Origin: an uncultured Clostridium sp.
Lineage (GTDB): Bacteria; Bacillota; Clostridia; TANB77; CAG-508
Assembly: GCA_964449925.1 (NCBI GenBank)
Contig: CAYVCM010000002.1
Span: 1-57,123, forward strand
Direction: 5' to 3'
Length of the DNA stretch: 57,123 nucleotides
A program made the position numbers and the translations under genes. Under the pieces are notes generated by a model, which saw only the letters and a program-made list of their open reading frames with translations, was not told where the DNA came from and ran no database searches. This document shows, in pieces, positions 6,477 through 33,005 of the stretch; position 1 is the stretch's first letter, and every line of letters starts with the position of its first letter.

Positions 6477-6579
6477 TTGCTAAAAAATAGGTTATCAACA
6501 ATTGTTCTAGAATTCATAAATCGGTTGCAGGAGTAAAGATACATCAATTTGTAAAAGACATAAAAAAGTAGAGATATGG

Positions 6580-6897: not shown

Positions 6898-8088
6898 CTA
6901 GTTTTTTTGTAGTAGCAAGTTTTGTAATACATTTCCTGCATTTCTATTATGAGAAATAATAGGGTGTACATAGAAATTAAATGTTGTTGTAATTTGTGCG
7001 TGACCTAATCTTGCTGCTACTACTGCTACATCAATATTCTGTGATATTAAAAGTGTAGCATTTGTGTGTCTTAATCCGTGAAAGTTAATTACAGGTAGTC
7101 CTATTTGTGCTACATATTTTACAAACCATTTGCTAATTGTAGAAGGGTGCATAGGTTTGCCATCAGCTTGTACAAATAACCTATTAGAATTCGTCCATAA
7201 TTCGCCATAGAATGATTTTTGTTCATCATACCATAATTTATATTCTTCAAGTAAAGAAACAACGAAATCAGGAATTGCTACTTCTCTAATAGAACTTTCT
7301 GTTTTAGGTGTCTTAGTAAATACACCTTTGTCTGCTAAATATTGACTAGAACGATTTATACTTACTATACCAGTTTTGAAATCTACATCTTGCCATTCTA
7401 ATCCCATAAGTTCTCCGAGTCTTACACCTGTAAATATTGTTAAGATGATTGCGACTTTGTATTTGATTTGTTCTTCACCAAGTTCTGTTAGATTTTCTAG
7501 TAATACTTTACATTGTTCATCATCGTAATATCTTCTTTTTGGTTTCATTGCTTTAGGTGGTTGAACTCTTTCTGCTGGATTAGATACAAGTAATTGCCAG
7601 TATATAGCTTTATGTAGCATTGCACGAAGTAGTCTATGATGCTCTAATATTGTCTTACCAGATAAAGGTTTTATTGTTTTCTTGCCATTGTTACTTTTCT
7701 TCCTAACTAATTGTGTATCTCTACTTAGTAAATCATAAAATTGCATAATATCTGTAGGTTTAATTTTGTTAATGTAGAAATGTTCAAAGTAGGGAAGAAT
7801 TCTAGTTTCTAACATTCTGCAATATCTTTTATATGTTGAAGGTGCAAGTTCTTTTGAACCATAATCTCTTTTCCATATTTCTGTAAATTCAGAAAATTTA
7901 AGAGATTTTCCTTCAATTACAAGACCGTTTTGAACATCAGCAACAAATTTAGCAAGTTCTATTTGAGCATCTTTTTTTGTTCCGTGTATTGTTTTTGTAT
8001 GTTTTATTAGTTTTCCATTTAAATCATAGCCATTTGTACATACTAACCTGTAACTATTTTTTCCTCTTTTTTCAATACTCCCAGCCAT
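6898..8088 (-). CDS. int: tyrosine site-specific integrase of the IME
   Basis: Arm-type N-terminus GSIEKRGKNSYRL. Catalytic region has TGVRLGEL, HGLRHTNATLL and LGHAQITTTFNFYVH. GGAGG RBS fits ATG 8088 (MAGSIEK). Confidence 0.9.
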   Translation of the reverse strand: MAGSIEKRGKNSYRLVCTNGYDLNGKLIKHTKTIHGTKKDAQIELAKFVADVQNGLVIEGKSLKFSEFTEIWKRDYGSKELAPSTYKRYCRMLETRILPYFEHFYINKIKPTDIMQFYDLLSRDTQLVRKKSNNGKKTIKPLSGKTILEHHRLLRAMLHKAIYWQLLVSNPAERVQPPKAMKPKRRYYDDEQCKVLLENLTELGEEQIKYKVAIILTIFTGVRLGELMGLEWQDVDFKTGIVSINRSSQYLADKGVFTKTPKTESSIREVAIPDFVVSLLEEYKLWYDEQKSFYGELWTNSNRLFVQADGKPMHPSTISKWFVKYVAQIGLPVINFHGLRHTNATLLISQNIDVAVVAARLGHAQITTTFNFYVHPIISHNRNAGNVLQNLLLQKN

Positions 8089-8147
8089 TACCTTTTTCAC
8101 CTCCTTTCAGGCATAACTATGGATGGGCGAGGATTATTATTAATAAT

Positions 8148-9050
8148 TTAACTTTTTTCTATAAGATTAATTATATGTAATATATTTTTAATATCAGATT
8201 CTTTTCCAAATATATATTTGCTCATTAAGTGGTTTTGAAAAATATTATATTTTATAATATCATTTATACTTAAATTAATAATTCCATTTGAGTTAGGCTT
8301 TATATGGCAAATGAGATATTCATCTTCAACATTTTGAACTTGCATAATAATTGCCAAATGTGGATTTATAGGAAAACAAATATCGTTAAAGCCTAATTCA
8401 AAATGAAAGAAAGGTTCATTAGAAATAATAAAACCTAAGTCATTAGAATTAGTAGCAATATAAATATTATAATTATAAAAAAAAGAAATAGCTTTTTTAT
8501 ATGTTTGAGGAATAGAAATGATATATTTTAATTGTTCTACTTTTGCTAATTCTTCAGGAGAAATATCTAAAGGATAATTAGCACACTCTTTAATCCCAAG
8601 ACTATTAAGCCAATTGGTTGTTTGAGTAGTAATTGTTTCTAGGATTCTTCTATATCCACTTGTACGAATAGATAAGGTTCTCAAAAATATAAAAAAAGTG
8701 GATAAAAATCCTTCATCTTTAATCAATGAAAAATCATTTTCTATTTTATCTAAATATTCAGACATATTATTTTCTAATTTAGAAAAAGTTTCTTCAATAA
8801 ATTGTGGATTATCAAGTATTTTTTTATAATTGATGTCATTATCTGAAATATTATAAATTTTTTTTAGTATAGAAAGTTCTGAACCTAGTTTATTTGGATC
8901 AATATCATAAAAAAATCGTTCACAAGCGAAGTTGGAAACATTAGAGTTTAATATAAGTTTTTTATGTTCTATATCATAAGCATCAATTTTTCCATTTTGA
9001 CCAAAACGTTTTAAATAAAATTGTGGTATATAATGTTGATTTTTAACCAT
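8148..9050 (-). CDS. DUF4238-like protein
   Basis: N-terminal NQHYIPQFYLKRFGQNG matches the HY(I/V)PxFYL(R/K)xF signature I associate with DUF4238. Confidence 0.55.
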   Translation of the reverse strand: MVKNQHYIPQFYLKRFGQNGKIDAYDIEHKKLILNSNVSNFACERFFYDIDPNKLGSELSILKKIYNISDNDINYKKILDNPQFIEETFSKLENNMSEYLDKIENDFSLIKDEGFLSTFFIFLRTLSIRTSGYRRILETITTQTTNWLNSLGIKECANYPLDISPEELAKVEQLKYIISIPQTYKKAISFFYNYNIYIATNSNDLGFIISNEPFFHFELGFNDICFPINPHLAIIMQVQNVEDEYLICHIKPNSNGIINLSINDIIKYNIFQNHLMSKYIFGKESDIKNILHIINLIEKS

Positions 9051-9095
9051 TTTTTAGTTCCTTTCTTTTTAAAACTTTTTTATAATATTATTTTC

Positions 9096-10352
9096 CTAAA
9101 TGCTAATATCACAAATAATGACATGCAATTCAACAAGTTCTTGTGATTCTGAAGATTTCTTAAATGTACATTGCCATTCATTTTTAGAAATTTCTAATAT
9201 TTTAGTTTGTAGAGAGTTATTTTTCAATTCCTCTTGTATCTTATTTGTAATAGAAGAAAAATCTTTTATGTTTTTATTAAATATAATTAAAGAAGTTTTT
9301 ATATCTCTCCAAGTAGTATAACTAAATAATTGAGTTATTGCATCTTTAAATTGGCTGATACCATTCCAAATTTTACATTCAGCTATATAAGCAGATTTGT
9401 TTTCAAATTGTATTCTTATATCCGTTTTTCCTTTTTTACTAAAAGTTTCACCTGTGGCTGTTGAATTATAATGTGTGTTAAGATTTGCTAATAGCATGTC
9501 TCTCAATTCCTCTTCATTTAATTTTTGACATGCAGCTGGAGAATGTTCAAAAGAAGTACAAGCTTGAGAAATTATATTTTTAATATATAAATAATCTTTA
9601 TCAGATATGTACCAATTTTTTGAAGGCTTAGCTTGCTCCGGAAAAGATTTTATTTCTTTTTTAGCAATTAAAGGTATTGAAGCTGTACTTGAAGCATTTG
9701 GATTTACTTTTAATGGGATATTTAGTTTATTTATTAAATTTGAAAAACTATTGGCTTTATTTTTTCTGGTAGTTAGAGCATCTTTAATGATATCTTTAAG
9801 TGAATTATTATAAATATAGATATCATTATTTACATATTGAATCATTTCAAGATAAGATTTAAATTCTCTATTAAAAAGAGAATCAATATATTGTTGAGGA
9901 TTTTCTTCTTTTTTTAAAGTACTTAATTCAATATTTAGGGAATAAAGAATAGTTGGTAAAACTTCCTTATTATTCAGGTTACTAAATCCATCTATTTCAA
10001 AAGTTGATAATATTCGTTGAGTTGGTTCTAAATGAAGCAAATGAGAAGAACCAGAAAATGGAATAGAATAACTTACTTTGCAAGAGTCCACTAAAAAAAA
10101 TTGTTGTTCTCTTAATCCCATTCTATAAAAAGGATTATATTTTTCTAATTTAGATTGTTCTAAAGAAGAAGTTTTCTTGTCTAAATATAATGTAAGTGAT
10201 TCAATATAAAATTTACTATAGTAATATTCAATTAGATCTTCAAAATTAGTGTTTAGTATTTGGGCATCAGATAAACTCTGAATATCTGATTTTATTTCGT
10301 TTCTTAAGTTGTTAAAATAAGAATAAGTATCTTGATGTTCAAATAGTTTCAT
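9096..10352 (-). CDS. hypothetical protein with C-terminal PD-(D/E)xK-like nuclease motif
   Basis: C-terminal GKTDIRIQFENKSAYIAECKIW gives a D...E-x-K spacing typical of restriction-endonuclease-fold domains. The N-terminal ~270 aa has no motif. Confidence 0.45.
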   Translation of the reverse strand: MKLFEHQDTYSYFNNLRNEIKSDIQSLSDAQILNTNFEDLIEYYYSKFYIESLTLYLDKKTSSLEQSKLEKYNPFYRMGLREQQFFLVDSCKVSYSIPFSGSSHLLHLEPTQRILSTFEIDGFSNLNNKEVLPTILYSLNIELSTLKKEENPQQYIDSLFNREFKSYLEMIQYVNNDIYIYNNSLKDIIKDALTTRKNKANSFSNLINKLNIPLKVNPNASSTASIPLIAKKEIKSFPEQAKPSKNWYISDKDYLYIKNIISQACTSFEHSPAACQKLNEEELRDMLLANLNTHYNSTATGETFSKKGKTDIRIQFENKSAYIAECKIWNGISQFKDAITQLFSYTTWRDIKTSLIIFNKNIKDFSSITNKIQEELKNNSLQTKILEISKNEWQCTFKKSSESQELVELHVIICDISI

Positions 10353-13842: not shown

Positions 13843-13972
13843 TAAAAAATAAGAAGAAAAGTACTTGGATAAAAAAAAGTCCAAGTATTTTTCAAAATTA
13901 GGTGTGCATTTGATATAAAAAAGGAATAATTTTAGTACTAAAAAGAAGCATATTGTTGTCCTAACAAGCAAT

Positions 13973-14012
13973 GAATTTCGTCAGCTCGAAATTCTAAATG
14001 GGGAAATTCCCC
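13973..14012 (+). promoter_or_regulatory. candidate oriT inverted repeats upstream of relaxase
   Basis: GAATTTCG-TCAGCT-CGAAATTC (13973-13994) and the palindrome GGGGAAATTCCCC (14000-14012), 30-70 bp upstream of the relaxase start. Confidence 0.45.
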
Positions 14013-14043
14013 AATCCCCTTTTTAGAAGAGAGGAGAAAGCAA

Positions 14044-15441
14044 ATGGCAACAACAAAAATATGGAAAGTACAAAAAAGATTAGATCATGTAATTAACTAT
14101 GCAACAAATGAAGAAAAAACAAAAAATAATTATAGCAAATATAGAATGGATGAGTTTGATAGTATCAGACAAGTAATGAGTTATGCAACTAATCCAGATA
14201 AAACAGAAAAACAATTTTATACTACAGGAATAAATTGTGAAGTAAAAGATGCAGTTAAGCAAATGCAATTTGTAAAAACATTATATAGAAAAGAAAATGG
14301 AATACTTGCTTTTCATGCTTACCAATCTTTTAATGAAGGAGAAGTTACTCCAAAGATAGCACATGAAATTGGAGTAAAACTTGCAAATGAAATGTGGGGA
14401 GATAGATTTCAAGTTGTAGTATCTACTCATTTAAATACTCAACATCTTCATAATCACTTTGTCATAAATTCAGTTTCATTTAAAGATGGAAAAAAGTATT
14501 ATAGTAATTTTACTAATACAGCATTATTAAGAAAAACTTCAGATGAAATATGTGAAGAATATGGCTTAAGTGTTTTAAAAGAAAAGACTTGCAAATCTGG
14601 AATTAATTTTGAAAATTTTTATAAAAAATCTATGAGAGATTCAGATTATTATAAATTTGCAAAAGAAGATATAGATTATGCAATAGAATATTCATGGACT
14701 TATAAAGAATTTTTAAAAAGATTAAAAGAAATGGGATATGAAGTATATATTAGAGCTAATAAAATTAGTGTGAGAATGTATCCACATAAAAGAAATATTA
14801 GAATAGAAAGAGCATTTGGAGAAGAATATTCTATTGAAAATATTCAAAATAAAATTTGTAGTAGATATCCAAGTAGAGAAGAAGTAATTAAACCTAAAAC
14901 TTATGATAAAAGATTATTTTATAAAGGTAGTGTGAAGAAATTAAGAAAACCTAAAGGGATAATTGCGTTATATTATTACTATTGTTATTTATTAAAAGTA
15001 TATCCAAAGAAAAATTTAAATTATAAACTTACTCCAAAAATGAGAGAAGAAGTAAGGAAAATGCACAAGTATTCAGAACAAATAAGGTTTATATGTAAGT
15101 ATAAGTTAGAAACTATAAATGATATAGATAATTTAAAAGAGAAGAAACAAGAAGAATTACAAAAGACTTTGAATATAAGGAATAGGTTGTATTATAAAAG
15201 ACAGAAATTAGATAATGAAAGTGAAAAAAATAGTATTACTAAAGAAATAATTGATGTTACTTCTGTTTTACAAAAAGTTAGAAAAGAGATTAAGTTGTGT
15301 GATGAAGTTAGTGACAATGCTAGGCAGATGAAAAGACAGATAAAAGAGTTAGAGGAGAGGAAGAAACAAAAGTCAAAGAAAAAAGAGCAAAGTAAGAAAT
15401 TAAAAGAGAAAAATAAAAAAGCTAGAAGGCATGAGAGGTAG
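14044..15441 (+). CDS. mob: relaxase/mobilization nuclease (MobA/VirD2-type)
   Basis: Histidine motif STHLNTQHLHNHFVINSV, as in PF03432 relaxases. Long Lys/Glu-rich coiled-coil tail. Confidence 0.8.
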   Translation: MATTKIWKVQKRLDHVINYATNEEKTKNNYSKYRMDEFDSIRQVMSYATNPDKTEKQFYTTGINCEVKDAVKQMQFVKTLYRKENGILAFHAYQSFNEGEVTPKIAHEIGVKLANEMWGDRFQVVVSTHLNTQHLHNHFVINSVSFKDGKKYYSNFTNTALLRKTSDEICEEYGLSVLKEKTCKSGINFENFYKKSMRDSDYYKFAKEDIDYAIEYSWTYKEFLKRLKEMGYEVYIRANKISVRMYPHKRNIRIERAFGEEYSIENIQNKICSRYPSREEVIKPKTYDKRLFYKGSVKKLRKPKGIIALYYYYCYLLKVYPKKNLNYKLTPKMREEVRKMHKYSEQIRFICKYKLETINDIDNLKEKKQEELQKTLNIRNRLYYKRQKLDNESEKNSITKEIIDVTSVLQKVRKEIKLCDEVSDNARQMKRQIKELEERKKQKSKKKEQSKKLKEKNKKARRHER

Positions 15442-15554
15442 AATAGGCACAGAAAGGTAATAAAAATTTTTATATAAATTATAAAAAATTATTGCAAAAG
15501 AAACAAATGTTTGATAAAATGTTTAAAATAATTAAAAGATATTGGCATATATCT

Positions 15555-15590
15555 ATAGAAAATTGTCTCATACCGTAGACAATTTTCTAT
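15555..15590. promoter_or_regulatory. 14-bp perfect inverted repeat ATAGAAAATTGTCT / AGACAATTTTCTAT, 8-nt loop
   Basis: Arms at 15555-15568 and 15577-15590, 37 nt upstream of the methyltransferase ATG. No T-run follows. Confidence 0.5.
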
Positions 15591-15626
15591 GAATATGATA
15601 TAACAATTATGAATGGAGGAGTAAAT

Positions 15627-18080
15627 ATGGCAAAAAAAGAAATAAATACAGATTTATGGGTTAATGAACTATTAAAAGAAGCAAAAATAAATTTAACAGC
15701 TCAAGGATGTAATATATTAGAAATTGATAATGCTTTAAAGACTGCTTCGAAAAATGGAACGGGAAATGTTGGATATCCAGAGTTTTGCGGAGTGGTAAAA
15801 GATTATGTTATTGTTATAGAAGATAAAGCAGATGTAAGAAATCATATTAAGAGGGATGAGGAAGGAAATATCAGTAGAAATCAAAATGATATAAAAGAAT
15901 ATGCTGTAAATGGTGCTTTATTCTATGCACAACATATTATAAAGAATTCAACATATAAGAAAGCAATAGCAATAGGAGTATCTGGAAATGAAAAAAGACA
16001 TAGAATTTCACCAATATATGTTGACGAAACAGAATATTATAGAGAACTTAATGATGTAGAATCATTTATATCTTTTAATGATTTAAATATAGAAGAATAT
16101 TATATTAGAGAGGTTTTAAAAGAAAGTACTGATAAAGAGAAAGAAACTGCTGAAATATTAAAAGATGCTGCAGAACTTCATGAATATCTTAGAAATTATG
16201 GTAATATTAAAGATGAAGAAAAACCATTAATTGTTTCTGGAATATTACTTGCATTAAGAGAAGCAGAATTTAAGAATTTTAATATTGATGATCTAACTGG
16301 GGATACTGTAAAAACTGATGGTGCAAAAATAATGGACGCTATTGAAGCTAATTTAAATAGATCAAATGTAACTCCAGAGATAAAAAAAGATAAAATAAAG
16401 AATCAATTTAATATTATAAAAGAAAGTCCAAAATTAAATGAAGTTAATTCAAAATTAGGTGAAACACCATTAAAATTTTTTACTAAATTTTTGAATGAAA
16501 AATTATATATGAGTATTAAATATACAAATTCAGCAGAAGATTATCTAGGAAGATTTTATGGAGAATTTATGAGCTATTCTGGAGGAAGTGGACAGACATT
16601 AGGTATAATATTGACACCAAAACATATAACTGAATTATTTTGTGATTTAGTCGATTTAAAGCCAAATGACATTGTTATTGATCCATGTTGTGGTACAGGT
16701 GGTTTTTTAGTAGCTGCTATGCATAAAATGTTAAAAGAAACGAATGATGAAAATCAAAGAAGGAGTATAAAACAAAAACAATTACTGGGAATAGAGCAGA
16801 GAGTGGATATGTTTACAATAGCAACGACTAATATGATATTAAGAGGTGATGGAAAAAGTAATTTAATTAATGATGATTTTTTAAGCCTTAATCCTAATAA
16901 GATACAATTAAATCAACCAACAGTTGGATTAATGAATCCACCATATTCTCAGGGTAGTAAAAATAACCCAGATTTATATGAAATATCATTTATTGAACAT
17001 TTGCTTAATTCATTAGTTTACGAAGGAAGATGTGCTGTAATAGTTCCCCAATCTTGTTTTACAGGAAAAACGAGTGAAGAACAATCAATAAGAGAAAACA
17101 TATTAAAACATCATACTTTAGAAGGTGTGATTACTTTAAGTAAAGATACATTTTATAGGGTTGGAACTATGCCATGTATAGCAGTTTTTACTGCAGGAAT
17201 TCCTCATCCAAAAGAAAAAATATGTAAGTTTATTAATTTTGAAGATGATGGATATGAAGTTCAAAAGCATATTGGATTAGTTGAAACGGAGTCAGCAAAA
17301 GATAAAAAACAACATTTATTAGATGTGTGGTTTGATAGAATTGAAGAAGATACTAATTATTGCGTAAAAACAAAAATTACAAAAGATGACGAATGGTTAC
17401 ACTCATATTATTATTTTAATGAAGACATTCCAACAGAAGAAGAATTTCAAAATTCAATAAGTGATTCGTTAACTTTTGAATTTAAAATGATTATGAATGG
17501 AAAAGATTATTTATATAGTAATATTGATAAATTAAAATGTGTAAAAAATATTGAGAATTTAGAAGATAAAACATGGTTACCATTTAAAATTAAAGATTTA
17601 TTTGAAACTTTTAAGGGAAGTAATGGAATCCAAACACATACAGGAGCATATATGCCTAAAAACAAGTTAGTATCTGGTAGAACGCCTAGAATTACAGTTA
17701 GAGATACTAATAATGGTGTTGATGGCTTTTATGACTCAAAAGATAAAAATTATCGTGAGTTTGAAAATTTTATTAGTGTATCATTTTTGGGCAGTGTATT
17801 TTACCATCCTTATAAAGCATCACTGGATATGAAAGTTCATGCACTAATATTAAAAGATAGGAAGATGAATAAATATATAGCAGAATTCCTTAAAGTTATG
17901 ATAAAAATGAATACACAACATTCTTCATATGGAAATCAATTATCAAGTACAGACCTTCCAAATCTTAGAATATTATTGCCTGTGGATAAAAACGAGATAC
18001 CAGATTGGCAGTATATGGAGAACTATTCAATGAAGGTTATTTGTGATAAAATGAATAAATATTTAAATTATTTTAATTAA
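15627..18080 (+). CDS. fused N6-adenine DNA methyltransferase + HsdS-like specificity domain, with possible N-terminal PD-ExK nuclease (Type IIG-like)
   Basis: Motif I VIDPCCGTGGFL and motif IV LMNPPYS. The C-terminal 250 aa resembles a single HsdS TRD (WLPFKIKDLFE...LPNLRILLP). The N-terminus has GYPEF-x12-IEDKAD. GGAGGAG RBS fits ATG 15627. Confidence 0.75.
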   Translation: MAKKEINTDLWVNELLKEAKINLTAQGCNILEIDNALKTASKNGTGNVGYPEFCGVVKDYVIVIEDKADVRNHIKRDEEGNISRNQNDIKEYAVNGALFYAQHIIKNSTYKKAIAIGVSGNEKRHRISPIYVDETEYYRELNDVESFISFNDLNIEEYYIREVLKESTDKEKETAEILKDAAELHEYLRNYGNIKDEEKPLIVSGILLALREAEFKNFNIDDLTGDTVKTDGAKIMDAIEANLNRSNVTPEIKKDKIKNQFNIIKESPKLNEVNSKLGETPLKFFTKFLNEKLYMSIKYTNSAEDYLGRFYGEFMSYSGGSGQTLGIILTPKHITELFCDLVDLKPNDIVIDPCCGTGGFLVAAMHKMLKETNDENQRRSIKQKQLLGIEQRVDMFTIATTNMILRGDGKSNLINDDFLSLNPNKIQLNQPTVGLMNPPYSQGSKNNPDLYEISFIEHLLNSLVYEGRCAVIVPQSCFTGKTSEEQSIRENILKHHTLEGVITLSKDTFYRVGTMPCIAVFTAGIPHPKEKICKFINFEDDGYEVQKHIGLVETESAKDKKQHLLDVWFDRIEEDTNYCVKTKITKDDEWLHSYYYFNEDIPTEEEFQNSISDSLTFEFKMIMNGKDYLYSNIDKLKCVKNIENLEDKTWLPFKIKDLFETFKGSNGIQTHTGAYMPKNKLVSGRTPRITVRDTNNGVDGFYDSKDKNYREFENFISVSFLGSVFYHPYKASLDMKVHALILKDRKMNKYIAEFLKVMIKMNTQHSSYGNQLSSTDLPNLRILLPVDKNEIPDWQYMENYSMKVICDKMNKYLNYFN

Positions 18081-18094
18081 AGGGATGATAAGAA

Positions 18095-19234
18095 ATGGAT
18101 GAAAATCAAGAGCAAACAGAAGATCTAAATACAGATGATGAAAATATTCAATTAGCTGAAAATAAAGATATAGATAAATATGATGAAAATTTTGAAATGG
18201 TTTCATATTATGAAAAAAGAAAAATGCTAGAAAAAACAAAAATAGTAAAACAAACATGGTCAATAATTGAAATATTCCAGAAAATTAATGATGGAAAGTT
18301 AATATTAGATCCAGAATATCAAAGAAATGTCATCTGGGATACTGAGAAAAAAACATCTTTTATAGAATCTTTATATATGGGAATAATAATTCCACCGATT
18401 TATGTGGTTGAAATTCCAAATGATGATATATTGAGTGGAAGTAGATATGAAGTGGTTGATGGAAAACAACGATTATCAACAATAAAATCTTTTATTAGTA
18501 ATGAATTGATATTAAAGAAAAAAAACTTGGAATATTATGCTGATTTATTTGGAGATAAAATATTTAGCGAGATAAAAGAAGAAAATATAAAGGAAACTAC
18601 TGAAATGCTTTCATCTGTATTAGATGTATATGTAATTACTGCTAATTCTCCAGAATTTACTAAATATGATATTTTTTCTAGATTAAATAAGGGATCAGAA
18701 AAATTAAGAGTTAATGAGATTAGAAAAGCTATATACCATTCAAATCTTACAAAGTTAATTGATGATTTTGTGAAAAATAATCAAAATCAAGAGGAATATA
18801 AAAAAGTATTTACTTTAAATGATAGAAAGAGATATGAAGATTATGGTAGATTCTATAAAAGTATGGCTTTTTATATTAGATCTAATTTGAAAACTGGAAT
18901 TGTTGAAAAATATAATTCGAGACCGAGAGAAATGATAAACGATGTTTTGCAAGAGTTTCAAAATAAAAAACATAAAGATGTCACTAGTGAAGAAATAAAT
19001 GAAATATTAGAAAAAACTATTAAAATGTTAATATTGTTTAAGGAATATAAAGGCAAAGATTATCTAATAGATGCATGTATACCTTTTGCAATAAATAATT
19101 GGAAAAAATTTGAAAAAAAAGTAAATATTATATTAGAAGATAAAGAATTATTATCAACATTTCAACAATCTCCAGCTACGACAACTAATGTAAATAAAAG
19201 ATTAAGTTGTGTAATGAGAATAATGAAGGAATAA
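18095..19234 (+). CDS. DUF262 (ParB-like/GmrSD N-terminal type) domain protein
   Basis: LDPEYQRNVIWDTEKKTSFIESLYMGIIIPPIYVV...VVDGKQRLSTI is the DUF262 signature with DGxQR. No DUF1524/HNH-type C-terminus was recognised. Confidence 0.7.
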   Translation: MDENQEQTEDLNTDDENIQLAENKDIDKYDENFEMVSYYEKRKMLEKTKIVKQTWSIIEIFQKINDGKLILDPEYQRNVIWDTEKKTSFIESLYMGIIIPPIYVVEIPNDDILSGSRYEVVDGKQRLSTIKSFISNELILKKKNLEYYADLFGDKIFSEIKEENIKETTEMLSSVLDVYVITANSPEFTKYDIFSRLNKGSEKLRVNEIRKAIYHSNLTKLIDDFVKNNQNQEEYKKVFTLNDRKRYEDYGRFYKSMAFYIRSNLKTGIVEKYNSRPREMINDVLQEFQNKKHKDVTSEEINEILEKTIKMLILFKEYKGKDYLIDACIPFAINNWKKFEKKVNIILEDKELLSTFQQSPATTTNVNKRLSCVMRIMKE

Positions 19235-19237
19235 TTA

Positions 19238-19867
19238 ATGAAAAACAGTGCAGATGAAATTCGTTTTCAGATAAGATCAGTTATCATAGTAAAATTTTTT
19301 GAATTGTATAAAGTATTGGAGAAAGAAGCAATAGATATTTTTTGTGAAGAAATAAAAAATGTTGATGAAAAATTTAAAAATAAATTATACTTTTTGTATG
19401 GAGGAAATTCGAATATAAAAATAGATATATCAAATAGCAAATTGTATATGGATCCTAAAACTTTCAGTGTAGATGAAGATTTTAGAAATTTTACGTTTAA
19501 CCAAATAATAAAGATATGTAAAATAGATAATAAAATAAAGAAATTTGATTTCAATATTAATTCAATGCAAAAGAGACAAGAAGAAATTGATTTTTATAGT
19601 TCTTGTGAAAAACTAATAAATATGAGAAATAAATTAGCACATGAGATTTTAATTGATAATTTTAAAGATAAAGATATTGTGGAAATGTTATCTGATAAAA
19701 AAATAGAAGAAAATATAATTTCTGAATTGTCAAACTTTGATATAAAATTAATGAATGTACCAGAAAAACAGATATATTCAAATTTATTATATTTAAATAT
19801 TATAATATTGAAACTTACAAATAAAGATAAGATATTAAATTTTATATGCTTAGGGGGAATTGATTAA
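19238..19867 (+). CDS. hypothetical protein with HEPN-like Rx4H motif
   Basis: LINMRNKLAHE matches the RNxxAH HEPN/DUF4145-type motif. The gene starts 3 nt after the DUF262 stop. Confidence 0.45.
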   Translation: MKNSADEIRFQIRSVIIVKFFELYKVLEKEAIDIFCEEIKNVDEKFKNKLYFLYGGNSNIKIDISNSKLYMDPKTFSVDEDFRNFTFNQIIKICKIDNKIKKFDFNINSMQKRQEEIDFYSSCEKLINMRNKLAHEILIDNFKDKDIVEMLSDKKIEENIISELSNFDIKLMNVPEKQIYSNLLYLNIIILKLTNKDKILNFICLGGID

Positions 19868-20797
19868 TTGAATAGGTTAGGAAAATTAGAAAAAGTAAAT
19901 TTAAGAGATATTTGGCCAAATGAAGAATATGATTTCTCTGTTTGGTTAAGCAAACAAGAAAATTTAAAAGAATTAAGTGATGCAATAGGAATAGATATAG
20001 AATTAGAAGAAAGAGAATCATCTGTTGGAAAATATAGTGTTGATATTTATGGAAGAGAAGAAGGAACAGACAGAAAAATTGTAATAGAAAATCAGCTAGA
20101 AGATTCTAATCATGATCATTTAGGAAAGGTAATTACATATGCTTCTGGGAAAGATGCAAAAACTATTATTTGGATAGTTAAAAGAGCTAGAGATGAACAT
20201 AGACAAGCTATAGAATGGTTGAATTCACATACTGATGAAGAAATAGGATTTTTCTTATTAGAAATTGAAGTTTGGAAGATAGGTGATTCCTTAGCTGCAC
20301 CTAAATTTAATATAGTGTCAAAACCAAATGATTGGGGAAAAACTCAAAAAGCAAGTAATGGACTTGGAAAAGCTCAAAAATTACAAGGAGAGTTTTGGCA
20401 GGCATTTGGAGAATATGGTGCAAGTAACGAAGAATATTCAAAAGAATTTAATAAGAGAAAAGCTTTACCACAACATTGGTATGACTTACCTATGGGAAAC
20501 TCTGAATATCATATTTCATTAACATGTGCAACACAAAGAAATGAAATAGGAATAGAAGTTTATATTGATAATAACAAAGAAATATATGATTTATTTTATG
20601 CTAATAAAGAATTGATAGAAGAAAAGACTGGATTAAAATATAAATGGCAACGATTAGATAATAAAAAAGCTTCAAGAATAAAGGCTATAAAAAAATGTGA
20701 TGTAACAAATCAAGAAAAGTGGGAAGAATGCTTTAAATGGTTTTGTGATTACGCATTGGTGATAAAAAAAGAATTTAATAAAATTTATAATAAATAA
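19868..20797 (+). CDS. DUF4268-type protein with N-terminal PD-(D/E)xK-like domain
   Basis: YSVDIYGRE...KIVIENQLEDSNHDHLGKVITYASG resembles the ENQL..DH.HLG.. signature of DUF4268 proteins. TTG start abuts the previous stop. Confidence 0.55.
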   Translation: MNRLGKLEKVNLRDIWPNEEYDFSVWLSKQENLKELSDAIGIDIELEERESSVGKYSVDIYGREEGTDRKIVIENQLEDSNHDHLGKVITYASGKDAKTIIWIVKRARDEHRQAIEWLNSHTDEEIGFFLLEIEVWKIGDSLAAPKFNIVSKPNDWGKTQKASNGLGKAQKLQGEFWQAFGEYGASNEEYSKEFNKRKALPQHWYDLPMGNSEYHISLTCATQRNEIGIEVYIDNNKEIYDLFYANKELIEEKTGLKYKWQRLDNKKASRIKAIKKCDVTNQEKWEECFKWFCDYALVIKKEFNKIYNK

Positions 20798-20806
20798 AAT
20801 ATTTTT

Positions 20807-20843
20807 ACAAAAGACAAGGTAACGGGATTATCTTGTCTTTTGT
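20807..20843 (+). terminator. 12-bp perfect hairpin ACAAAAGACAAG...CTTGTCTTTTGT between DUF4268 and KAP genes
   Basis: Stem 20807-20818 / 20832-20843, followed directly by the GGAGG of the KAP gene. No long T-run, so it may be an attenuator or processing site. Confidence 0.4.
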
Positions 20844-20857
20844 AATGGAGGAATAAG

Positions 20858-23464
20858 ATGAAAGAAAGAATAAATTTTCTAAAAATATTTAACGTTAGAG
20901 AGATAATTGAAACTATTTTATTATTTATAATAGTATTTTTGTTAATAGATATGTTTAATATTCCTACTTTTTTACTAGAAAATTATGATATATATTGTAT
21001 TATTGCTTTAATAGTAGTTATTACATTTTTTATAATTGATAAAAAATTTTTAAACTTGATAAAGGTTAATGTCTTTAATTATTTTGATTTAATATTATTT
21101 ACAAGTTTTATATCTACGACAATATATATATTATATAGTAAATATATTTCATATTCAAGTTTTAAATTAATAATGTGTATATTACTAGAAAATATATTGA
21201 TAGGTTTTATAATCTTAAGATTTATCATTATGTACATATTGGATAAAAAAGTAAATGAGAAAAAAGAATTTAATGTATATGATATTAGAAAATTATATAA
21301 AAATGAAATAGATAATAGTAATCATGATTTAATTTTTCTTGAAGAAAAAGATGTTGATTATGATTTACTAAATAGAAATAAAATTATTGGAGATTTATTT
21401 AATAGTATAAATTATTGCAAAAATAAAGAGAGATTTATAATATCTTTAACAGGAAAGTGGGGTTCTGGTAAAACTACAATATTAAATATTGTGAAAAAAC
21501 AATTAGATTCTGAAAGCTTTATAATTATTGATAATTTTGAAACATGGAAATATAATAATGAAAAATCTTTGTTATGTGGAATGTTTGATGAAATTATAAA
21601 AAAAATTGGTATAAATTTTAGTACGTTGGAAGTAAAAAAGTTTGTTAATAGTTGTATAGCTATAGTTTCAGCAAAAACAGATGTAAATATAGGATACTTT
21701 TCATTGGATTATAAAATAATAGATAAAATTAAATTAATGATAGGGGAGTATTTAAAAAAGAATAATAAAAGAGTAGTGTTCATTATAGATAATCTTGAAA
21801 GGACAAATGAAAATAACATTTTAGTTATTCTAAAAACTATTTCTACAATTTTAAATATAGATAGATTTATATATGTTTTGAGTTATGATGAAAATGAAAT
21901 GCAAGATATATTTAATAATAAATTGTATATCAATTATGATTACATGGACAAAGTAGTTCAACTACCATTATCTGTTCCAGATATAAACCAAGAAGATATA
22001 GATGAAGTTTGCACAATATGTTTGAAAAATTTATTAATTCATTATGGAATTAATAAAAAAGATATAGAACATTATTCATCTGCAATAAATTTATTCAATA
22101 AAAACATAAAGGACCTTAGATCTTTTAAGAGAAAAATTAACTCAATATGTAATTGTTGTTTTTTTGGCGATAATTATTTAAATAAGGCAGACTATTTCTT
22201 ACTAGAATTAATTAGACAAGAAAATATAGAATTATATAAAGATATTAGAAAAAATTATGAATACTATGTTTCAGAAGACCAAGTTGCAGTTTATGGTTAT
22301 TTAAAAGATAATGCAAAAGAATTTAATGAACGAGCAACTAAATATTTTGATGAACTATTTGAAAACGATAAAAATAAAGAATATAAAAATATACTTTGTT
22401 TATTATTCCCAAATGTTGAAAAATATAATAATGCATATAGAGTTTATCGTAATAGTGTAGAATTTTTAAATGAATCAGAATACCGTATTCCAAGAGATAA
22501 AGAAAAGTATAGAAAGTCTATAACTGAAAGAAGAATATATAATGCTAAATTCTTTGATTTATACTTTATCAAACAAGAAAATGATTTTATAAATATAGAT
22601 AGTAAAATAAAGGAATTTATTGAATGGGATAATAAAAATAAGATTGATTTAGAAAATATTGAAGAAATTAAAATATTACAAAACAAACTTTCAGAAATTC
22701 TATATATGTATAAAGGAATAGGACAAAAATTTATAATTGAAACAATGGAAATGTACTGTAGAAATCTTGATAAAAATAAAGTTCCTATTTTGATGTGCTT
22801 GATAAAATCACAAGAATATATGGATAATACATCAATCTTTTTAGGACTAAATGCAAAAGATAGATTAGAAATAGTTTGTGCAGAAATAATAAGATATTTA
22901 TCTAAAGAAGAATTAGAACAATTAAAATCAATAGTTGAGATTAATTATAAAAACATGTACTTTATAAGAGGAATAATACAATGGTTAAAGAAAGAAAATA
23001 ATTCTTTTGAGCAAGATTATAATGAAAGAATATATAGAGAGTTGGATGAAAGTTATAAAAAATTAATAGCTAATGTTACTATAAACCAAATTAACATTTA
23101 TAGCAATAAAAATTATTCAAGACATAATATATATTGTTTAATTGATAGTGAAGAATGTATGAATCAAATGAAAAATATTAATGAAAAAAATATATTTGCA
23201 TTTTTAGCAGATATGATATCAAATTCAGTAGGAACAGGTGGATACGGTTATTCAATTAATTTAGATACATTCAATAAACTTAGTTCATATGAAATTGTTG
23301 ATGCAATATTATCTAAAATTAATGATGAGGATTTAAATGATATAGAAAAATTTATAAAAAGAGTATATAAAAAGTCAAAAGAAAAGGAAACGAATTCTTC
23401 ATTACACGAAAAAGCAGAATATGTTGATAAATTTATTGACTTGAGAGAAATAAATATAAAATAA
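20858..23464 (+). CDS. KAP-family P-loop NTPase with N-terminal transmembrane helices
   Basis: Walker A LTGKWGSGKTTIL and Walker B-like VVFIIDNLER. Residues ~20-125 form 4-5 hydrophobic helices. Confidence 0.75.
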   Translation: MKERINFLKIFNVREIIETILLFIIVFLLIDMFNIPTFLLENYDIYCIIALIVVITFFIIDKKFLNLIKVNVFNYFDLILFTSFISTTIYILYSKYISYSSFKLIMCILLENILIGFIILRFIIMYILDKKVNEKKEFNVYDIRKLYKNEIDNSNHDLIFLEEKDVDYDLLNRNKIIGDLFNSINYCKNKERFIISLTGKWGSGKTTILNIVKKQLDSESFIIIDNFETWKYNNEKSLLCGMFDEIIKKIGINFSTLEVKKFVNSCIAIVSAKTDVNIGYFSLDYKIIDKIKLMIGEYLKKNNKRVVFIIDNLERTNENNILVILKTISTILNIDRFIYVLSYDENEMQDIFNNKLYINYDYMDKVVQLPLSVPDINQEDIDEVCTICLKNLLIHYGINKKDIEHYSSAINLFNKNIKDLRSFKRKINSICNCCFFGDNYLNKADYFLLELIRQENIELYKDIRKNYEYYVSEDQVAVYGYLKDNAKEFNERATKYFDELFENDKNKEYKNILCLLFPNVEKYNNAYRVYRNSVEFLNESEYRIPRDKEKYRKSITERRIYNAKFFDLYFIKQENDFINIDSKIKEFIEWDNKNKIDLENIEEIKILQNKLSEILYMYKGIGQKFIIETMEMYCRNLDKNKVPILMCLIKSQEYMDNTSIFLGLNAKDRLEIVCAEIIRYLSKEELEQLKSIVEINYKNMYFIRGIIQWLKKENNSFEQDYNERIYRELDESYKKLIANVTINQINIYSNKNYSRHNIYCLIDSEECMNQMKNINEKNIFAFLADMISNSVGTGGYGYSINLDTFNKLSSYEIVDAILSKINDEDLNDIEKFIKRVYKKSKEKETNSSLHEKAEYVDKFIDLREINIK

Positions 23465-23482
23465 AAAGGTGAATAATACGAT

Positions 23483-23977
23483 ATGGAAATTATAGAATAT
23501 GATTATAATACAAGATTGGAGTGTTCTAAATTTATTAGAAAATACAATAAATCAAAATATTTGAATACTTTAAATATACAAACTTTTTCGAAAGGGAAAA
23601 AGATATTTTTAGTTGTAGAAAAAACAATTTTTTATAGATATAAAATACTAGGATATGCAATAATTTATGAAGATTTGCATGTGATATGTTATTCAAATAA
23701 TATAAGTAAAAAATATGATGAAGATGATGAAACTATATTCATTTCTGATTTTATGATAGATTATCCATATCGTAACCAAGGAATTGGAAAGTTTTTAGCT
23801 AAATATATTTTATATGAAGTATATAAAAATAAAAACATTATTTTACAACCAGATGATGATGGTAATTGGTTTTGGAAAAAATTTGAATTTGTACATGACA
23901 AAATATCGCAACATGCGACATTAATATTAAAAAAGAAAAATAATAAAGTAAATATAGGAGAAATAAGAAATGAATGA
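23483..23977 (+). CDS. GNAT-like acetyltransferase
   Basis: ISDFMIDYPYRNQGIGKFLAKYIL corresponds to GNAT motif A (R/Q-x-x-G-x-G). Confidence 0.5.
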   Translation: MEIIEYDYNTRLECSKFIRKYNKSKYLNTLNIQTFSKGKKIFLVVEKTIFYRYKILGYAIIYEDLHVICYSNNISKKYDEDDETIFISDFMIDYPYRNQGIGKFLAKYILYEVYKNKNIILQPDDDGNWFWKKFEFVHDKISQHATLILKKKNNKVNIGEIRNE

Positions 23978-24545
23978 TATAAACATTATTTCAGATATTA
24001 TTATTCCTATATTAGCATCTTTTATTGGAGGAATATTAACATTAGGAGGAGTGATAATAACAATAAATACTCAAAAGAAGAACGATATAGAAAATAAAAA
24101 ATTAAGAATAAAACCATATTTTTATGCTAATAATCCATATCAAATAATAGATGGACTGGATAAAGCTGATAATTTTGTTATGGTAAATGAAAGTAAAGTT
24201 AAGGGAGATTATAAAATAGATGGTATAATAAAGAATACAGATAATGCAATAATGATATTAAAAAATATAATTATAGATGGAAAATATTATTTTCCTGAGC
24301 ATGGTAATATAATAGATAAAAATACTATTTTTTATTTACATATTTTCCCTGATGAAATTAAAAATGCTAATGAAGTATATTTAACAGTTACAGATGTTAT
24401 GAATAATGAATATTATTACAAATTAGAATATTATTTTGATGGAAAAAATACTATGGAATACAAGGATTTGAAGAGTTGGAAAATAAAGAGTAAAAAGGAA
24501 ACAGAAAAAGTTGATTTATCTGTTTCTTTTTTACTACATAACTGA
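23970..24545 (+). CDS. hypothetical membrane-anchored protein
   Basis: One N-terminal TM helix (IISDIIIPILASFIGGILTLGGVIITI). Overlaps the GNAT stop by 8 nt. Confidence 0.4.
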   Translation: MNDINIISDIIIPILASFIGGILTLGGVIITINTQKKNDIENKKLRIKPYFYANNPYQIIDGLDKADNFVMVNESKVKGDYKIDGIIKNTDNAIMILKNIIIDGKYYFPEHGNIIDKNTIFYLHIFPDEIKNANEVYLTVTDVMNNEYYYKLEYYFDGKNTMEYKDLKSWKIKSKKETEKVDLSVSFLLHN

Positions 24546-28865: not shown

Positions 28866-29948
28866 ATGAAGAAAAAATTAAAAGTTATAGATTTATTTTG
28901 TGGTTGTGGAGGATTAAGTAGAGGATTTGAACTTGCAGGATTTGAAATAGTAGGTGGGATAGACTTCAATAAAGATGCAATCAAAACATTTAATAAAAAC
29001 TTTAAAAATGCTAAAGGGATATGTTGTGATATATCTTCCATGACAGAAGAGGAAATTAGAAAAAATTTTGGAGATTTAAAAGATATAGAGGTAATAATAG
29101 GTGGTCCACCTTGTCAAGGATTTTCTGCTGCAAATAGAAATAAAGTAAATGATGATCCAAGAAACAAATTATTTTTCGAATTTGTTAAGTTTGTTGATAT
29201 GGCAAAACCTAAAGCAATAGTAATTGAAAATGTAAGAGGAATAATTTCAGAAAATAATGGATATGCAAAAGAACAAATTTACAAAATATTTGAAGAAAGA
29301 GGATATAAAGTCAATAATAAAGTCTTGAATGCATCAGATTATGGAGTACCTCAAAAAAGAATGAGAAACTTTTTTGTAATGCTAAGAAATAATATTTTTG
29401 ATTTTGAAGAGATGCAAAAAGTTAAAGAAAAAGTAACAGTCGAAGATGCTATAGGAGAGCTATACCAATATGAGGATAATAGTGATGGTCATGAAATTAA
29501 ATTGAATAGTCGTGCAAATACAGTATATAGAAAATATTTAAGGAATAATAATAATACTATTGCCAATCATGAAGTTAGATACCCTTCAGATATAGTACAA
29601 AAAAGGATTTCTTATGTAAAACAAGGAGAAAATTGGCAAAAGATTCCTAAAGAATTATTTTCTAATCAACGAAATAATAGACATTCGTCAGCATATAAAA
29701 GATTAGATGAGAAAGATGTTTCTGTAACCATAGATACAGGAAATTCACATAGTAATTATTTTCATCCATTATATAATAGAATTCCAACAGTAAGAGAAGC
29801 TGCAAGAATACAGTCCTTTGATGATTCGTTTATATTTGAAGGAGGAAGAACATCACAATATAGACAAGTTGGAAATGCTGTACCACCATTATTATCAAAA
29901 GCTCTAGCAGAAGTTATAAAAAAGGAGTTAGAATGTAATAATGAATAA
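28866..29948 (+). CDS. DNA (cytosine-5)-methyltransferase 1
   Basis: DLFCGCGGLS (I), GGPPCQGFS (IV), ENV (VI), QKRMRNF (VIII), GNAVPP (X). Confidence 0.9.
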   Translation: MKKKLKVIDLFCGCGGLSRGFELAGFEIVGGIDFNKDAIKTFNKNFKNAKGICCDISSMTEEEIRKNFGDLKDIEVIIGGPPCQGFSAANRNKVNDDPRNKLFFEFVKFVDMAKPKAIVIENVRGIISENNGYAKEQIYKIFEERGYKVNNKVLNASDYGVPQKRMRNFFVMLRNNIFDFEEMQKVKEKVTVEDAIGELYQYEDNSDGHEIKLNSRANTVYRKYLRNNNNTIANHEVRYPSDIVQKRISYVKQGENWQKIPKELFSNQRNNRHSSAYKRLDEKDVSVTIDTGNSHSNYFHPLYNRIPTVREAARIQSFDDSFIFEGGRTSQYRQVGNAVPPLLSKALAEVIKKELECNNE

Positions 29949-30957
29949 TGAAATAATTGATTTATTTTGTGGCTGTGGAGGATTAAGCAAAGGATTTGAA
30001 CTTGCAGGATTTGAAACTGCATTAGCAATAGACATGTGGGATGATGCAGTAAAAACATATAATCACAATCATAAAGAAAAAGTAGCGATTTGTGAAGATA
30101 TAAAAGATTTAAATGATAAATATTTAGACGAATTTTCTAAAAAACACAAAATTGTTGGAATAATAGGTGGACCACCTTGTCAAGGCTATAGTACAGTTGG
30201 AAAAAGAGACATAAATGATGATAGAAATTATTTATACCTTGAATATTGTAGAATTGTTGAAAAAATAAAACCGGAATTCTTTTTGTTGGAAAATGTAAAA
30301 GGTTTATTAACATTAAATGATGGATTATTTAAGGATGACATAATAAGAAGATTTGGAAAACTGGGATATAATATAACATATAAGATATTAAATGCTGCCG
30401 ATTATGGTGTACCCCAGAATAGACAGAGAGTATTTTTTGTAGGAATTAAAGATAAAACTTTTAAGTTTCCAAAGGAGCATAATAAAAAAATATCTACTAT
30501 GGAAGCTATAGGAGATTTAGAAAAAAGTAATAAAAAGTATTTAGTAGAGCCTCAAAATGATTATCAAAGAATGATGAGAAAAAATTCTAAAGAATTAAAA
30601 AATAATGATATAACAATTCATTCAGAACAAACGATTAATATAATAAATTTAGTACCTGACGGAGGAAAAATTAAGGATTTAGATAAAAAGTATTGGGAAG
30701 TAAGAAAATATAATAAAGCATTTCAAAGAATGAACAGTAAATTACCATCAAATACTATAGACACAGGACATAGAAACTATTTTCATTATAAAGAAAACAG
30801 AATCCCTACTGTAAGGGAATCTGCTAGAATACAATCATTTACAGATGATTTTGAATTTTTAGGATCAAAGACTAGTCAATATAAGCAAGTTGGAAATGCT
30901 GTACCACCATTACTTGCATATGAATTAGCAAAGGAAATAAAGAAGCAAATAAAATAA
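29941..30957 (+). CDS. DNA (cytosine-5)-methyltransferase 2
   Basis: DLFCGCGGLS, GGPPCQGYS, ENV, QNRQRVFF, GNAVPP. Overlaps the M1 stop. Confidence 0.9.
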   Translation: MNNEIIDLFCGCGGLSKGFELAGFETALAIDMWDDAVKTYNHNHKEKVAICEDIKDLNDKYLDEFSKKHKIVGIIGGPPCQGYSTVGKRDINDDRNYLYLEYCRIVEKIKPEFFLLENVKGLLTLNDGLFKDDIIRRFGKLGYNITYKILNAADYGVPQNRQRVFFVGIKDKTFKFPKEHNKKISTMEAIGDLEKSNKKYLVEPQNDYQRMMRKNSKELKNNDITIHSEQTINIINLVPDGGKIKDLDKKYWEVRKYNKAFQRMNSKLPSNTIDTGHRNYFHYKENRIPTVRESARIQSFTDDFEFLGSKTSQYKQVGNAVPPLLAYELAKEIKKQIK

Positions 30958-30970
30958 GAAGGAATTTATT

Positions 30971-31666
30971 ATGGAAGAAAAAATAATTGATATAAAAGGA
31001 TTTGGATCTCCCGGAGTTAGTTTTACAGAAAACTTTAATAAAAAATTAGAAAAATATGCAATGTTTATAAATATACATAAGGATGAAGAACTAGAATACA
31101 AAGAATTACAAACAAAAATGAATGAAGAATTAAAAATTACTGAAAGCGCAATAAGAGTAGACATTCCATTTTTATACAATAATGGATTTCTAAATGACTA
31201 TAGAAAAGACAAAATTGGTAAAATAAAACTAAGTAATTTTATTAGTAATTTAGGAAAAGCATATATTGAACTGATAGAAATTAAAGAAGAATATTCGGGC
31301 AGTATTAGTAGTGATATAGATAAGAAAATTGAAGAAATATTAAAACTTATTATAGTGTTGTCATTAATTAATAGAAAGAATAATGGTCAAGAAGAAAACT
31401 ATTTCGAAATATTAAGATTTATTTATGAAAATAATAGTATTGATGAAAAAGAATTCTACTTATTAAAAACTATAAATGATAAAGAAGAGTTAAAAAGAGA
31501 AGTAGAAATGTATAGAAAAGGAAAGTTAAATATTATTTTAGAAAATAATAATACAGTTTTTACATATAATAAGAGTATGTTAATTCAAGCTGGTCTCATA
31601 AAAGAAATGGATAAAAGATACTATATTGATGAAAATAGTATAGATTTGGTTGAAAAAATAATATAG
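30971..31666 (+). CDS. hypothetical protein, candidate third restriction subunit
   Basis: 231-aa ORF between M2 and the McrB-like gene, with 13- and 10-nt gaps; no motif recognised. Confidence 0.4.
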   Translation: MEEKIIDIKGFGSPGVSFTENFNKKLEKYAMFINIHKDEELEYKELQTKMNEELKITESAIRVDIPFLYNNGFLNDYRKDKIGKIKLSNFISNLGKAYIELIEIKEEYSGSISSDIDKKIEEILKLIIVLSLINRKNNGQEENYFEILRFIYENNSIDEKEFYLLKTINDKEELKREVEMYRKGKLNIILENNNTVFTYNKSMLIQAGLIKEMDKRYYIDENSIDLVEKII

Positions 31667-31676
31667 GAGAATAATT

Positions 31677-32981: not shown

Positions 32982-33005
32982 ATATAGCTAAAAAGGGGGA
33001 AAATA

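Follow-up and report, generated by a model that had tools for sequence, protein, structure and literature searches.

A stand-alone DUF262 gene followed by a small HEPN gene has been described in PD-T4-2 of Escherichia coli ECOR65, annotated as 'DUF262, HEPN', which comprises two genes in 1540 base pairs (bp), has been validated as an anti-T4 system, and sensitizes the native strain to T4 when deleted; the HHpred table for its second protein, PD-T4-2B, lists RiboL-PSP, MAE_28990, Swt1, MtlR, and Abi_2 (Vassallo et al., 2022). Operons of ParB, HEPN, and methylase genes have been listed for HEPN proteins of the MAE_28990 and RiboL-PSP types, and the hallmark motifs of HEPN proteins are Rx4-6H and Ex3[KR] (Anantharaman et al., 2013). 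DUF4268 proteins have been described as single-gene nucleases: Madara, which corresponds to PDC-S11, is a NucS-like PD-(D/E)xK nuclease that restricts T4 with glucosyl-hydroxymethylcytosine DNA but not unmodified T4, and is inactive as the D63A mutant (2026 preprint); MdgA and MdgB are DUF4268-containing and modification-dependent, and MdgA degrades T4 DNA in vitro and is inactivated by E77A (2025 preprint). Genes of these kinds stand side by side in the 57,123-nucleotide stretch of DNA from an uncultured Clostridium sp. analyzed here (contig CAYVCM010000002.1, positions 1 to 57,123; hereafter the window), where a methyltransferase gene is followed by genes for a DUF262 protein, a putative HEPN protein, and a DUF4268 protein. 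The comparison with PD-T4-2A and PD-T4-2B, Madara, and MdgA was made at two levels, that of hidden Markov models (HMMs) and that of the literature.

We consider it likely that this arrangement consists of two anti-phage modules that are separate from each other and lie one after the other in the cargo of an integrative, mobilizable element: a restriction-modification operon that includes the DUF262 and HEPN genes, and a nuclease of the Madara/MdgA type. Four open reading frames (ORFs) on the same strand fill positions 15609-20797 of the window, which is AT-rich (about 25% GC), and are followed by a hairpin:

15609-18080, + strand: type IIG restriction-modification enzyme, 823 amino acids (aa)
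18095-19234, + strand: stand-alone ParB-like DUF262 protein, 379 aa, ATG start
19238-19867, + strand: putative HEPN protein, 209 aa, ATG start
19868-20797, + strand: DUF4268 protein, 309 aa, TTG start
20805-20845, + strand: RNA hairpin of 18 bp (RNA fold), just 3' of the DUF4268 stop codon

These ORFs are genuine genes rather than chance reading frames, each with many homologues.

The DUF262 and HEPN genes form a genuine, strictly syntenic two-gene module, as seen from two anchors: the HEPN family (20 loci) and the DUF262 protein (80 loci from metagenomes and 6 belonging to four distant homologues). In 20/20 HEPN-anchored loci the HEPN gene is directly preceded by the DUF262 gene, and the HEPN gene lies directly downstream of the DUF262 gene, on the same strand and with a gap of -53 to +14 nucleotides, in 82/82 DUF262-anchored loci, a count that excludes four loci with less than 510 bp of downstream sequence. 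The loci represent 52 HEPN clusters at 80% identity (34 at 60%) and come from Bacillota and Bacteroidota, among them Clostridia, Lachnospiraceae, Oscillospiraceae, Bacilli, Bacteroides, Muribaculum, and Flavobacterium. In this module the HEPN protein replaces the HNH effector of GmrSD-type enzymes; a DUF1524/HNH domain has no Pfam match in any gene between 15609 and 24545. An initial annotation of the window had described the DUF262 protein as lacking the DUF1524/HNH half, which agrees with this result, and had proposed that a HEPN RNase or a PD-(D/E)xK nuclease stands in for the HNH effector; this is borne out for the HEPN protein, which takes the HNH place in the DUF262 module, and not for the DUF4268 nuclease as a part of the system.

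The pair does have a conserved third partner, but this is a restriction-modification methyltransferase, not DUF4268. Every lineage whose flanking sequence is long enough has, next to the pair and in the same orientation, an N6-adenine methyltransferase with a specificity domain; it lies upstream of the pair in about two thirds of the lineages and otherwise immediately downstream of the HEPN gene. It takes the form of a single type IIG-like chain (806-866 aa) or of split M (about 605-620 aa) and S (about 350 aa) proteins; in Flavobacterium (locus L007) the partner is a complete HsdR-HsdM-HsdS set, followed by McrBC. An N-terminal D/E...(D/E)xK nuclease motif is kept in 18 of the 19 clusters of partner methyltransferases, which are thus probably working restriction enzymes.

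The partner in the window fits this pattern. Its product matches Pfam N6_Mtase (1.4e-34) and, in PADLOC, REase_MTase_IIG (2.5e-164, residues 9-640) and Specificity_II (4.4e-19, residues 639-810), and it carries the nuclease motif YPEF...VIVIEDK (PE...IEDK) at its N-terminus. By these matches it is a complete type IIG enzyme, whose single chain combines a nuclease, a gamma-class N6-adenine methyltransferase, and a specificity domain, the PD-(D/E)xK nuclease being assigned to the N-terminal and the specificity domain to the C-terminal end. It had previously been annotated simply as a methyltransferase, a description that holds for the methyltransferase domain but falls short of the full enzyme, which also has nuclease and specificity domains.

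Within the module the DUF262 and HEPN proteins covary more closely with each other than with the restriction enzyme: median pairwise identity is 55% for the DUF262 protein, 32% for the HEPN protein, and 23% for the methyltransferase, and the correlation of distances (Mantel rho) is 0.50 between DUF262 and HEPN as against 0.30-0.35 between either of them and the methyltransferase. Synteny and covariation together define the evolutionary unit as a DUF262-HEPN cassette whose place is always within a restriction-modification operon and whose restriction partner is exchanged.

This linkage raises the possibility that the pair is the restriction arm of an SspE-like system of self/non-self discrimination, in which the methyltransferase would mark self with N6-methyladenine (m6A), the DUF262 protein would read the mark, and unmarked DNA would license the effector. 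Linkage to N6-adenine methyltransferases in every lineage, in either gene order and with three enzyme architectures, speaks for it, as does SspE itself, a DUF262 protein coupled to a host modification module; a generic reader of m6A would moreover fit a conserved DUF262 protein beside diverse specificity domains. However, the partners, with their own nuclease motifs and, in Flavobacterium, a full HsdR, are complete restriction systems by themselves; discrimination at the level of DNA is an odd task for an RNase; and PD-T4-2 works as two genes without a methylase. We therefore regard this explanation as quite unlikely.

The DUF4268 gene shows the opposite behavior to the methyltransferase, and it is here that the spacing of the genes in the window has to be weighed against the census. 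The intergenic gaps are 14 nucleotides between the type IIG and DUF262 genes, 3 between DUF262 and HEPN, and 0 between HEPN and DUF4268, with the Shine-Dalgarno-like runs AAGGGA, GAAGGA, and AGGGGGA located 9-10 nucleotides before the DUF262, HEPN, and DUF4268 starts, respectively. The hairpin at 20805-20845 has a folding free energy of -20.8 kcal/mol (z -6.0; 0/200 shuffles fold equally well) and is probably the 3' end of the operon, either terminator-like or stabilizing; it has no U tract and was hence missed by the terminator scan. As it occurs only after DUF4268, the four genes probably share one transcript; a promoter scan of the locus performed no better than on shuffled sequence. The tight trio downstream of the methyltransferase gene noted in the initial annotation is thus real in its coordinates, and it had been taken for one system, in which the DUF262 protein would sense modified DNA and hand over to the HEPN RNase, the DUF4268 nuclease, or both. 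Besides the gaps, the Shine-Dalgarno motifs, and the position of the hairpin, such an integrated trio draws support from its conservation in the closest relatives (loci L001-L004, L008, L027, L028, and L111) and from the reported associations of DUF4268 domains, which are often fused to GmrSD proteins and occur most commonly with DUF262/DUF1524 proteins (Machnicka, 2015).

Across the family, however, the DUF4268 gene stands beside the pair in only 2/52 HEPN lineages and is absent from the other 50, whereas the DUF262-HEPN pair is retained throughout; synteny of the trio beyond the window, which the three-gene proposal had left to be checked, therefore holds for the pair and not for DUF4268, which elsewhere occurs alone. 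Both carrier lineages share the backbone of the window element (DUF6076, HTH_17, replisome organizer, DnaC-like protein, relaxase ... TnpV), and in these two relatives the DUF4268 protein is 91-93% identical to the window copy, the HEPN protein just 59-60%, a pattern that suggests shuffling of cargo. Plasmids of Agrobacterium, Rhodococcus, Burkholderia, and Halorubrum also carry full-length DUF4268 homologues, and in 4/4 sampled plasmids neither DUF262 nor HEPN matches lie nearby. The protein is, finally, a complete PDC-S11, a family whose members work alone. On this evidence a single three-gene system is highly improbable. The arrangement had also been thought undescribed, which is true only of the accidental trio: DUF262 with HEPN is known from PD-T4-2, and operons of ParB, HEPN, and methylase were listed in 2013.

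The DUF4268 protein matches Pfam DUF4268 (2.4e-32, residues 173-305) and PADLOC PDC-S11 over nearly its entire length (9.5e-122, residues 1-307 against model positions 1-312 of 318; further models at 2.8e-118 and 1.7e-81). Residues D59, E74, N75, Q76, H82, and H84 are invariant among its bacterial and archaeal homologues, across phyla, and include the D...ENQ motif noted before; phmmer finds no match to it among PDB sequences. By these matches it is of the PDC-S11 kind, with an N-terminal NucS-like PD-(D/E)xK domain (D59, E74, Q76) and a C-terminal DUF4268 domain, and the predicted catalytic residues D59 and E74 lie close to D63 of Madara and E77 of MdgA; its host differs, being a low-GC element of the Bacillota type rather than E. 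coli. The gene is accordingly classed, from its domain matches, as an independent type IV restriction enzyme of a previously described kind, predicted to be modification-dependent.

In the DUF262 protein, which matches Pfam GmrSD_N at 3.3e-26, the motifs YQRNVIW (QRxxxW), VDGKQR (DGxQR), and FSRLN (FxxxN) are intact, and they are invariant across the clade. PADLOC NsnA covers it almost entirely (1.4e-47, residues 11-379 of 379) and PD-T4-2_A matches with a lower score (2e-24, residues 56-313). An AlphaFold2 (AF2) model (mean predicted local distance difference test score, pLDDT, 78) is helical in its C-terminal half, and its best structural matches in the PDB are BrxU (probability 0.97-0.98), followed by the ParB/Noc CTPases; phmmer finds no match among PDB sequences. 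Sequence and model together assign to it an N-terminal DUF262 nucleoside triphosphatase (NTPase) domain and a C-terminal helical, ParBDB-like domain, as in NsnA, the latter resembling the DNA-binding ParBDB domain of NsnA and SspE. NCBIfam contributes nothing useful for this protein, nor for the HEPN and DUF4268 proteins.

The 209-aa protein itself has no match in Pfam, NCBIfam, or PADLOC, and its assignment comes from its family. An exhaustive HMM search of 1.84 billion representatives yields a sharply bounded family of 153 representatives, nearly all with a length of about 200 aa. Aligning 96 diverse members leaves R130 and H135 (96/96) as the sole invariant residues, which form an Rx4H motif within the MRNKLAHE stretch of the window protein (residues 129-136); N131 is kept in 95/96 members and E28 in 93/96, with K or R four residues after E28 (Ex3[KR]) in 80/96. 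When the members are scanned one by one against Pfam, the seven families matched most often are all HEPN, most scores being under the Pfam cut-offs: HepT-like with 8 members (best 4.8e-6), MAE_28990 with 7 (best 8.3e-7), Swt1 with 6, RiboL-PSP with 5 (best 4.4e-5), DUF4145 with 5, and Abi_2 and Apea with 3 each; one member (P0021) matches HEPN_RiboL-PSP at 7.6e-6 over residues 18-153. Most members, the window protein among them, match no HEPN profile, so that its homology to HEPN is transitive. The AF2 model of the window protein is confident (pLDDT 84) and consists mainly of helices plus a small beta insert; the profile of the family finds only HepS among PDB sequences, at E=1.7, and tblastn of the protein against plasmids and phages finds nothing. 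The invariant R and H, the Ex3[KR] motif, and the convergence of weak profile matches on HEPN families agree with the HEPN call made earlier from the RNKLAH motif, and the protein is very probably a HEPN RNase. By its profile matches, the family is either separate from the recognized HEPN families or highly divergent from them, and has no model in Pfam or PADLOC.

Among described systems the pair is most like PD-T4-2, with a stand-alone DUF262 gene followed by a small HEPN gene and DUF1524/HNH lacking in both systems; the HHpred list of PD-T4-2B in turn mirrors the weak HEPN-family matches of the window family. The two differ in size (1540 bp for both genes in PD-T4-2, 1773 bp in the window) and in setting, cloned PD-T4-2 working without a methylase, while the clade of the window is always found in a restriction-modification operon. 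In this last respect the operon corresponds to the ParB-HEPN-methylase triad of Anantharaman et al. (2013), the same triad being conserved around the window pair, so that as a kind it had already been noticed in 2013; there it is a table entry with neither census nor experiment, and the profile matches of the window family lie below or near the Pfam thresholds of the HEPN types for which it was listed.

Menshen (NsnABC) offers the closest counterpart of the DUF262 protein alone, NsnA likewise having a ParB-DUF262 domain and, after it, a helical domain at the C-terminus. Menshen lies beside restriction-modification or methylase genes in 27.9% of its operons, and HEPN effectors are not mentioned in the survey of the system (Menshen survey). 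As an identification of the window pair it was rejected: PADLOC detects neither the NsnB ABC ATPase nor NsnC (an inactive PIN domain with a nuclease), and NsnB is not found after DUF262 in the window genes, in the HEPN family, or in 82/82 DUF262-anchored loci, where the HEPN gene stands instead.

With GmrSD, BrxU, and SspE the DUF262 protein shares the NTPase domain with its DGxQR motif, BrxU being the best structural match, and the pair would share with BrxU, which accompanies BREX, the position of a back-up defense beside a methylation-based system. It differs from them in having no DUF1524 HNH nuclease, its putative effector being a separate HEPN RNase, which probably means that it targets RNA rather than modified DNA. 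A GmrSD enzyme split into GmrS and GmrD was ruled out, there being no DUF1524. PrrC, in the EcoprrI system, and RloC resemble the pair in placing an NTPase-controlled HEPN RNase inside a restriction-modification operon, as a second line of defense. In PrrC, however, the NTPase is of the ABC type, is fused to HEPN, and is tied to a single type Ic system, whereas in the window it is ParB-like, on a protein of its own, and in its clade stands beside very diverse restriction enzymes.

From these comparisons we infer an RNase activity of the HEPN protein, a switch mechanism, and a trigger. In the first module the restriction enzyme would act as the first line against unmodified foreign DNA. The DUF262 protein, proposed as sensor and switch, would bind DNA and hydrolyze nucleoside triphosphates, holding the HEPN RNase in check in the manner of a ParB-type switch; upon an infection cue it would release or activate the RNase, which would then cut cellular or phage RNA. 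Growth would be arrested or the infection aborted, giving a second line of defense after the restriction enzyme, comparable to PrrC in EcoprrI or BrxU beside BREX. The second module (19868-20797) would be an independent Madara/MdgA-type nuclease that cleaves hypermodified phage DNA, and would be co-transcribed with the first only because cargo genes are tightly packed in the element.

As to the trigger, the candidate that we would put first, at a little under an even chance, is phage DNA that is modified or abnormal in some other way, in line with DUF262 in GmrSD, BrxU, and SspE. A second, somewhat less probable candidate, modeled on PrrC or SspE, would be that the linked restriction enzyme, or its m6A mark, is lost or inhibited; for some other cue there is a smaller but appreciable chance. 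The conservation of the DUF262 protein beside very diverse restriction enzymes favors a ligand of a generic kind, for which nucleotide pools, m6A status, and modified or abnormal DNA are examples; from the strict linkage in one operon, the pair would seem to depend to some degree on the restriction-modification system. A more specific proposal, which we put forward tentatively and consider doubtful, is that the pair is an obligate accessory of specificity-bearing N6-adenine restriction-modification enzymes, in which the switch would read the state of the enzyme or its m6A mark and fire the HEPN RNase when the first line fails.

The same features could also be those of an addiction cassette of the toxin-antitoxin kind, in which a HEPN toxin and a ParB-like NTPase as its neutralizer would stabilize the restriction-modification gene or the mobile element rather than act against phages. 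HEPN toxins paired with enzyme antitoxins are known (HEPN-MNT), the DUF262 and HEPN genes overlap or abut, the pair is found on mobile elements with relaxases and recombinases, and HEPN evolves fast beside a conserved partner. Yet PD-T4-2, which has the same architecture, gives phage defense, and its deletion exposes the native host to T4; DUF262 proteins are defense sensors or NTPases in all studied systems; and addiction and defense by abortive infection can coexist. Addiction as the sole role of the pair is therefore unlikely.

Several points weigh against the reading of the pair as a PD-T4-2-like defense module with an HEPN effector under a DUF262 switch and a separate nuclease next to it. 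None of 96 HEPN-family members matches the PADLOC PD-T4-2_B models at E<=1, so that orthology of the pair to PD-T4-2 is not established, and the DUF262 protein of the window is nearer to Menshen NsnA than to PD-T4-2_A. Structure comparison, by which the HEPN call was to be judged, gave no significant match for the mainly helical model: Foldseek against PDB and BFVD returns nothing at E<=0.001, the best hits being HepS (2.3) and Csm6 (5.2), both of them HEPN proteins. The window copy has I32 in place of the K or R of Ex3[KR], with E28, R130, N131, and H135 intact. A guard acting by direct protein-protein contact is made less likely by the conservation of the DUF262 protein beside very diverse restriction enzymes. 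The DUF4268 protein may still engage in functional cross-talk with the pair in this lineage, given the GmrSD fusions and the good Shine-Dalgarno sequence at the 0-nucleotide junction.

The operon is embedded in further genes that look like defense cargo. Megablast of the 9.6-kb region finds no match among phages and, among plasmids, a sole match of 72% to part of the methyltransferase gene, on a Butyrivibrio plasmid. Directly after the hairpin, the segment 20858-24545 looks like another defense-type cargo module:

Directly after the hairpin, within 20858-24545: KAP-family P-loop NTPase, 868 aa, with a strongly hydrophobic N-terminus (PADLOC PifA 4e-26, QatA 6e-13)
23483-23977, after the KAP NTPase: GNAT acetyltransferase
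Within 20858-24545, overlapping the GNAT gene by 8 nucleotides: ORF of 191 aa

No related locus has this module; a helicase, a Fic protein, or a second DUF262 protein occupies the position there. The KAP NTPase was rejected as a missing ATPase of the DUF262-HEPN pair, phmmer giving zero matches to it in the other loci, and MADS was ruled out as well, the only similarities being weak ones, in the methyltransferase and KAP, far under the cut-offs. In locus L001 the pair is followed (13908-15713) by a second GmrSD_N protein of 601 aa and a Fic protein, and in Flavobacterium (L007, 8634-16597) by McrBC and a CBASS-like SMODS-HORMA-SAVED set; with further defense genes after the pair in both loci, the site downstream of it is a general cargo hotspot.

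Upstream, the following features lie near the presumed border of the element:

5095-6438, + strand: integrase gene
6558-6618, + strand: partial tRNA match (Rfam RF00005, model positions 9-63; not called by ARAGORN), flanked by the two integrase genes
6898-8100, - strand: integrase gene
8148-10352, - strand, beside the integrase gene: DUF4238 protein (300 aa) and a 418-aa protein with no Pfam match

The partial tRNA is probably the remnant of an attachment site at a border of the integrative, mobilizable element with the defense cargo. A DUF4238 gene also stands beside the DUF262-HEPN-methyltransferase operon of Clostridium sp. 'deep sea' (L021, 12040-13167) and may be a further island-associated defense candidate. 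The remainder of the window holds additional defense loci:

28866-34241: LlaJI-type restriction-modification cluster, with two C5-cytosine methyltransferases, a 231-aa ORF, an AAA_5 McrB-like GTPase with HTH_73, and a RE_LlaJI endonuclease
34400-35563, - strand, after the LlaJI-type cluster: ISL3 transposase
35854-37098, after the ISL3 transposase: AAA_14/DUF4143 ATPase
48867-57123: type I CRISPR-Cas locus, with Cas7 at 50665-51603, a Cas3-like helicase at 52452-54863, and Cas1 at 55377-56378
56804 to the window end: CRISPR array (Rfam CRISPR-DR3), with 30-nucleotide repeats and spacers of about 36 nucleotides

These considerations illustrate that genes packed closely on a mobile element do not thereby form a system, and that a census reveals which of them are true co-travelers. 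They define a compact HEPN family (153 representatives of about 200 aa with the motif RNxxxH), whose DUF262 partner would currently be mislabeled as an orphan Menshen NsnA, and they document a 100% operonic linkage of the pair to restriction-modification methyltransferases, in both gene orders and with three enzyme architectures. The linkage makes it testable whether a ParB-like NTPase couples the failure of restriction, or abnormal DNA, to an RNase, a mechanism still missing for systems of the PD-T4-2 type. In the window itself, one small mobilizable element would carry a layered arsenal of type IIG restriction, DUF262-HEPN, a Madara-type type IV nuclease, and a KAP NTPase. If the pair were indeed an obligate accessory of restriction-modification enzymes, it would follow the logic of PrrC or SspE with components unrelated to theirs, and would be widespread among gut Bacillota and Bacteroidota and invisible to current defense-finding tools.

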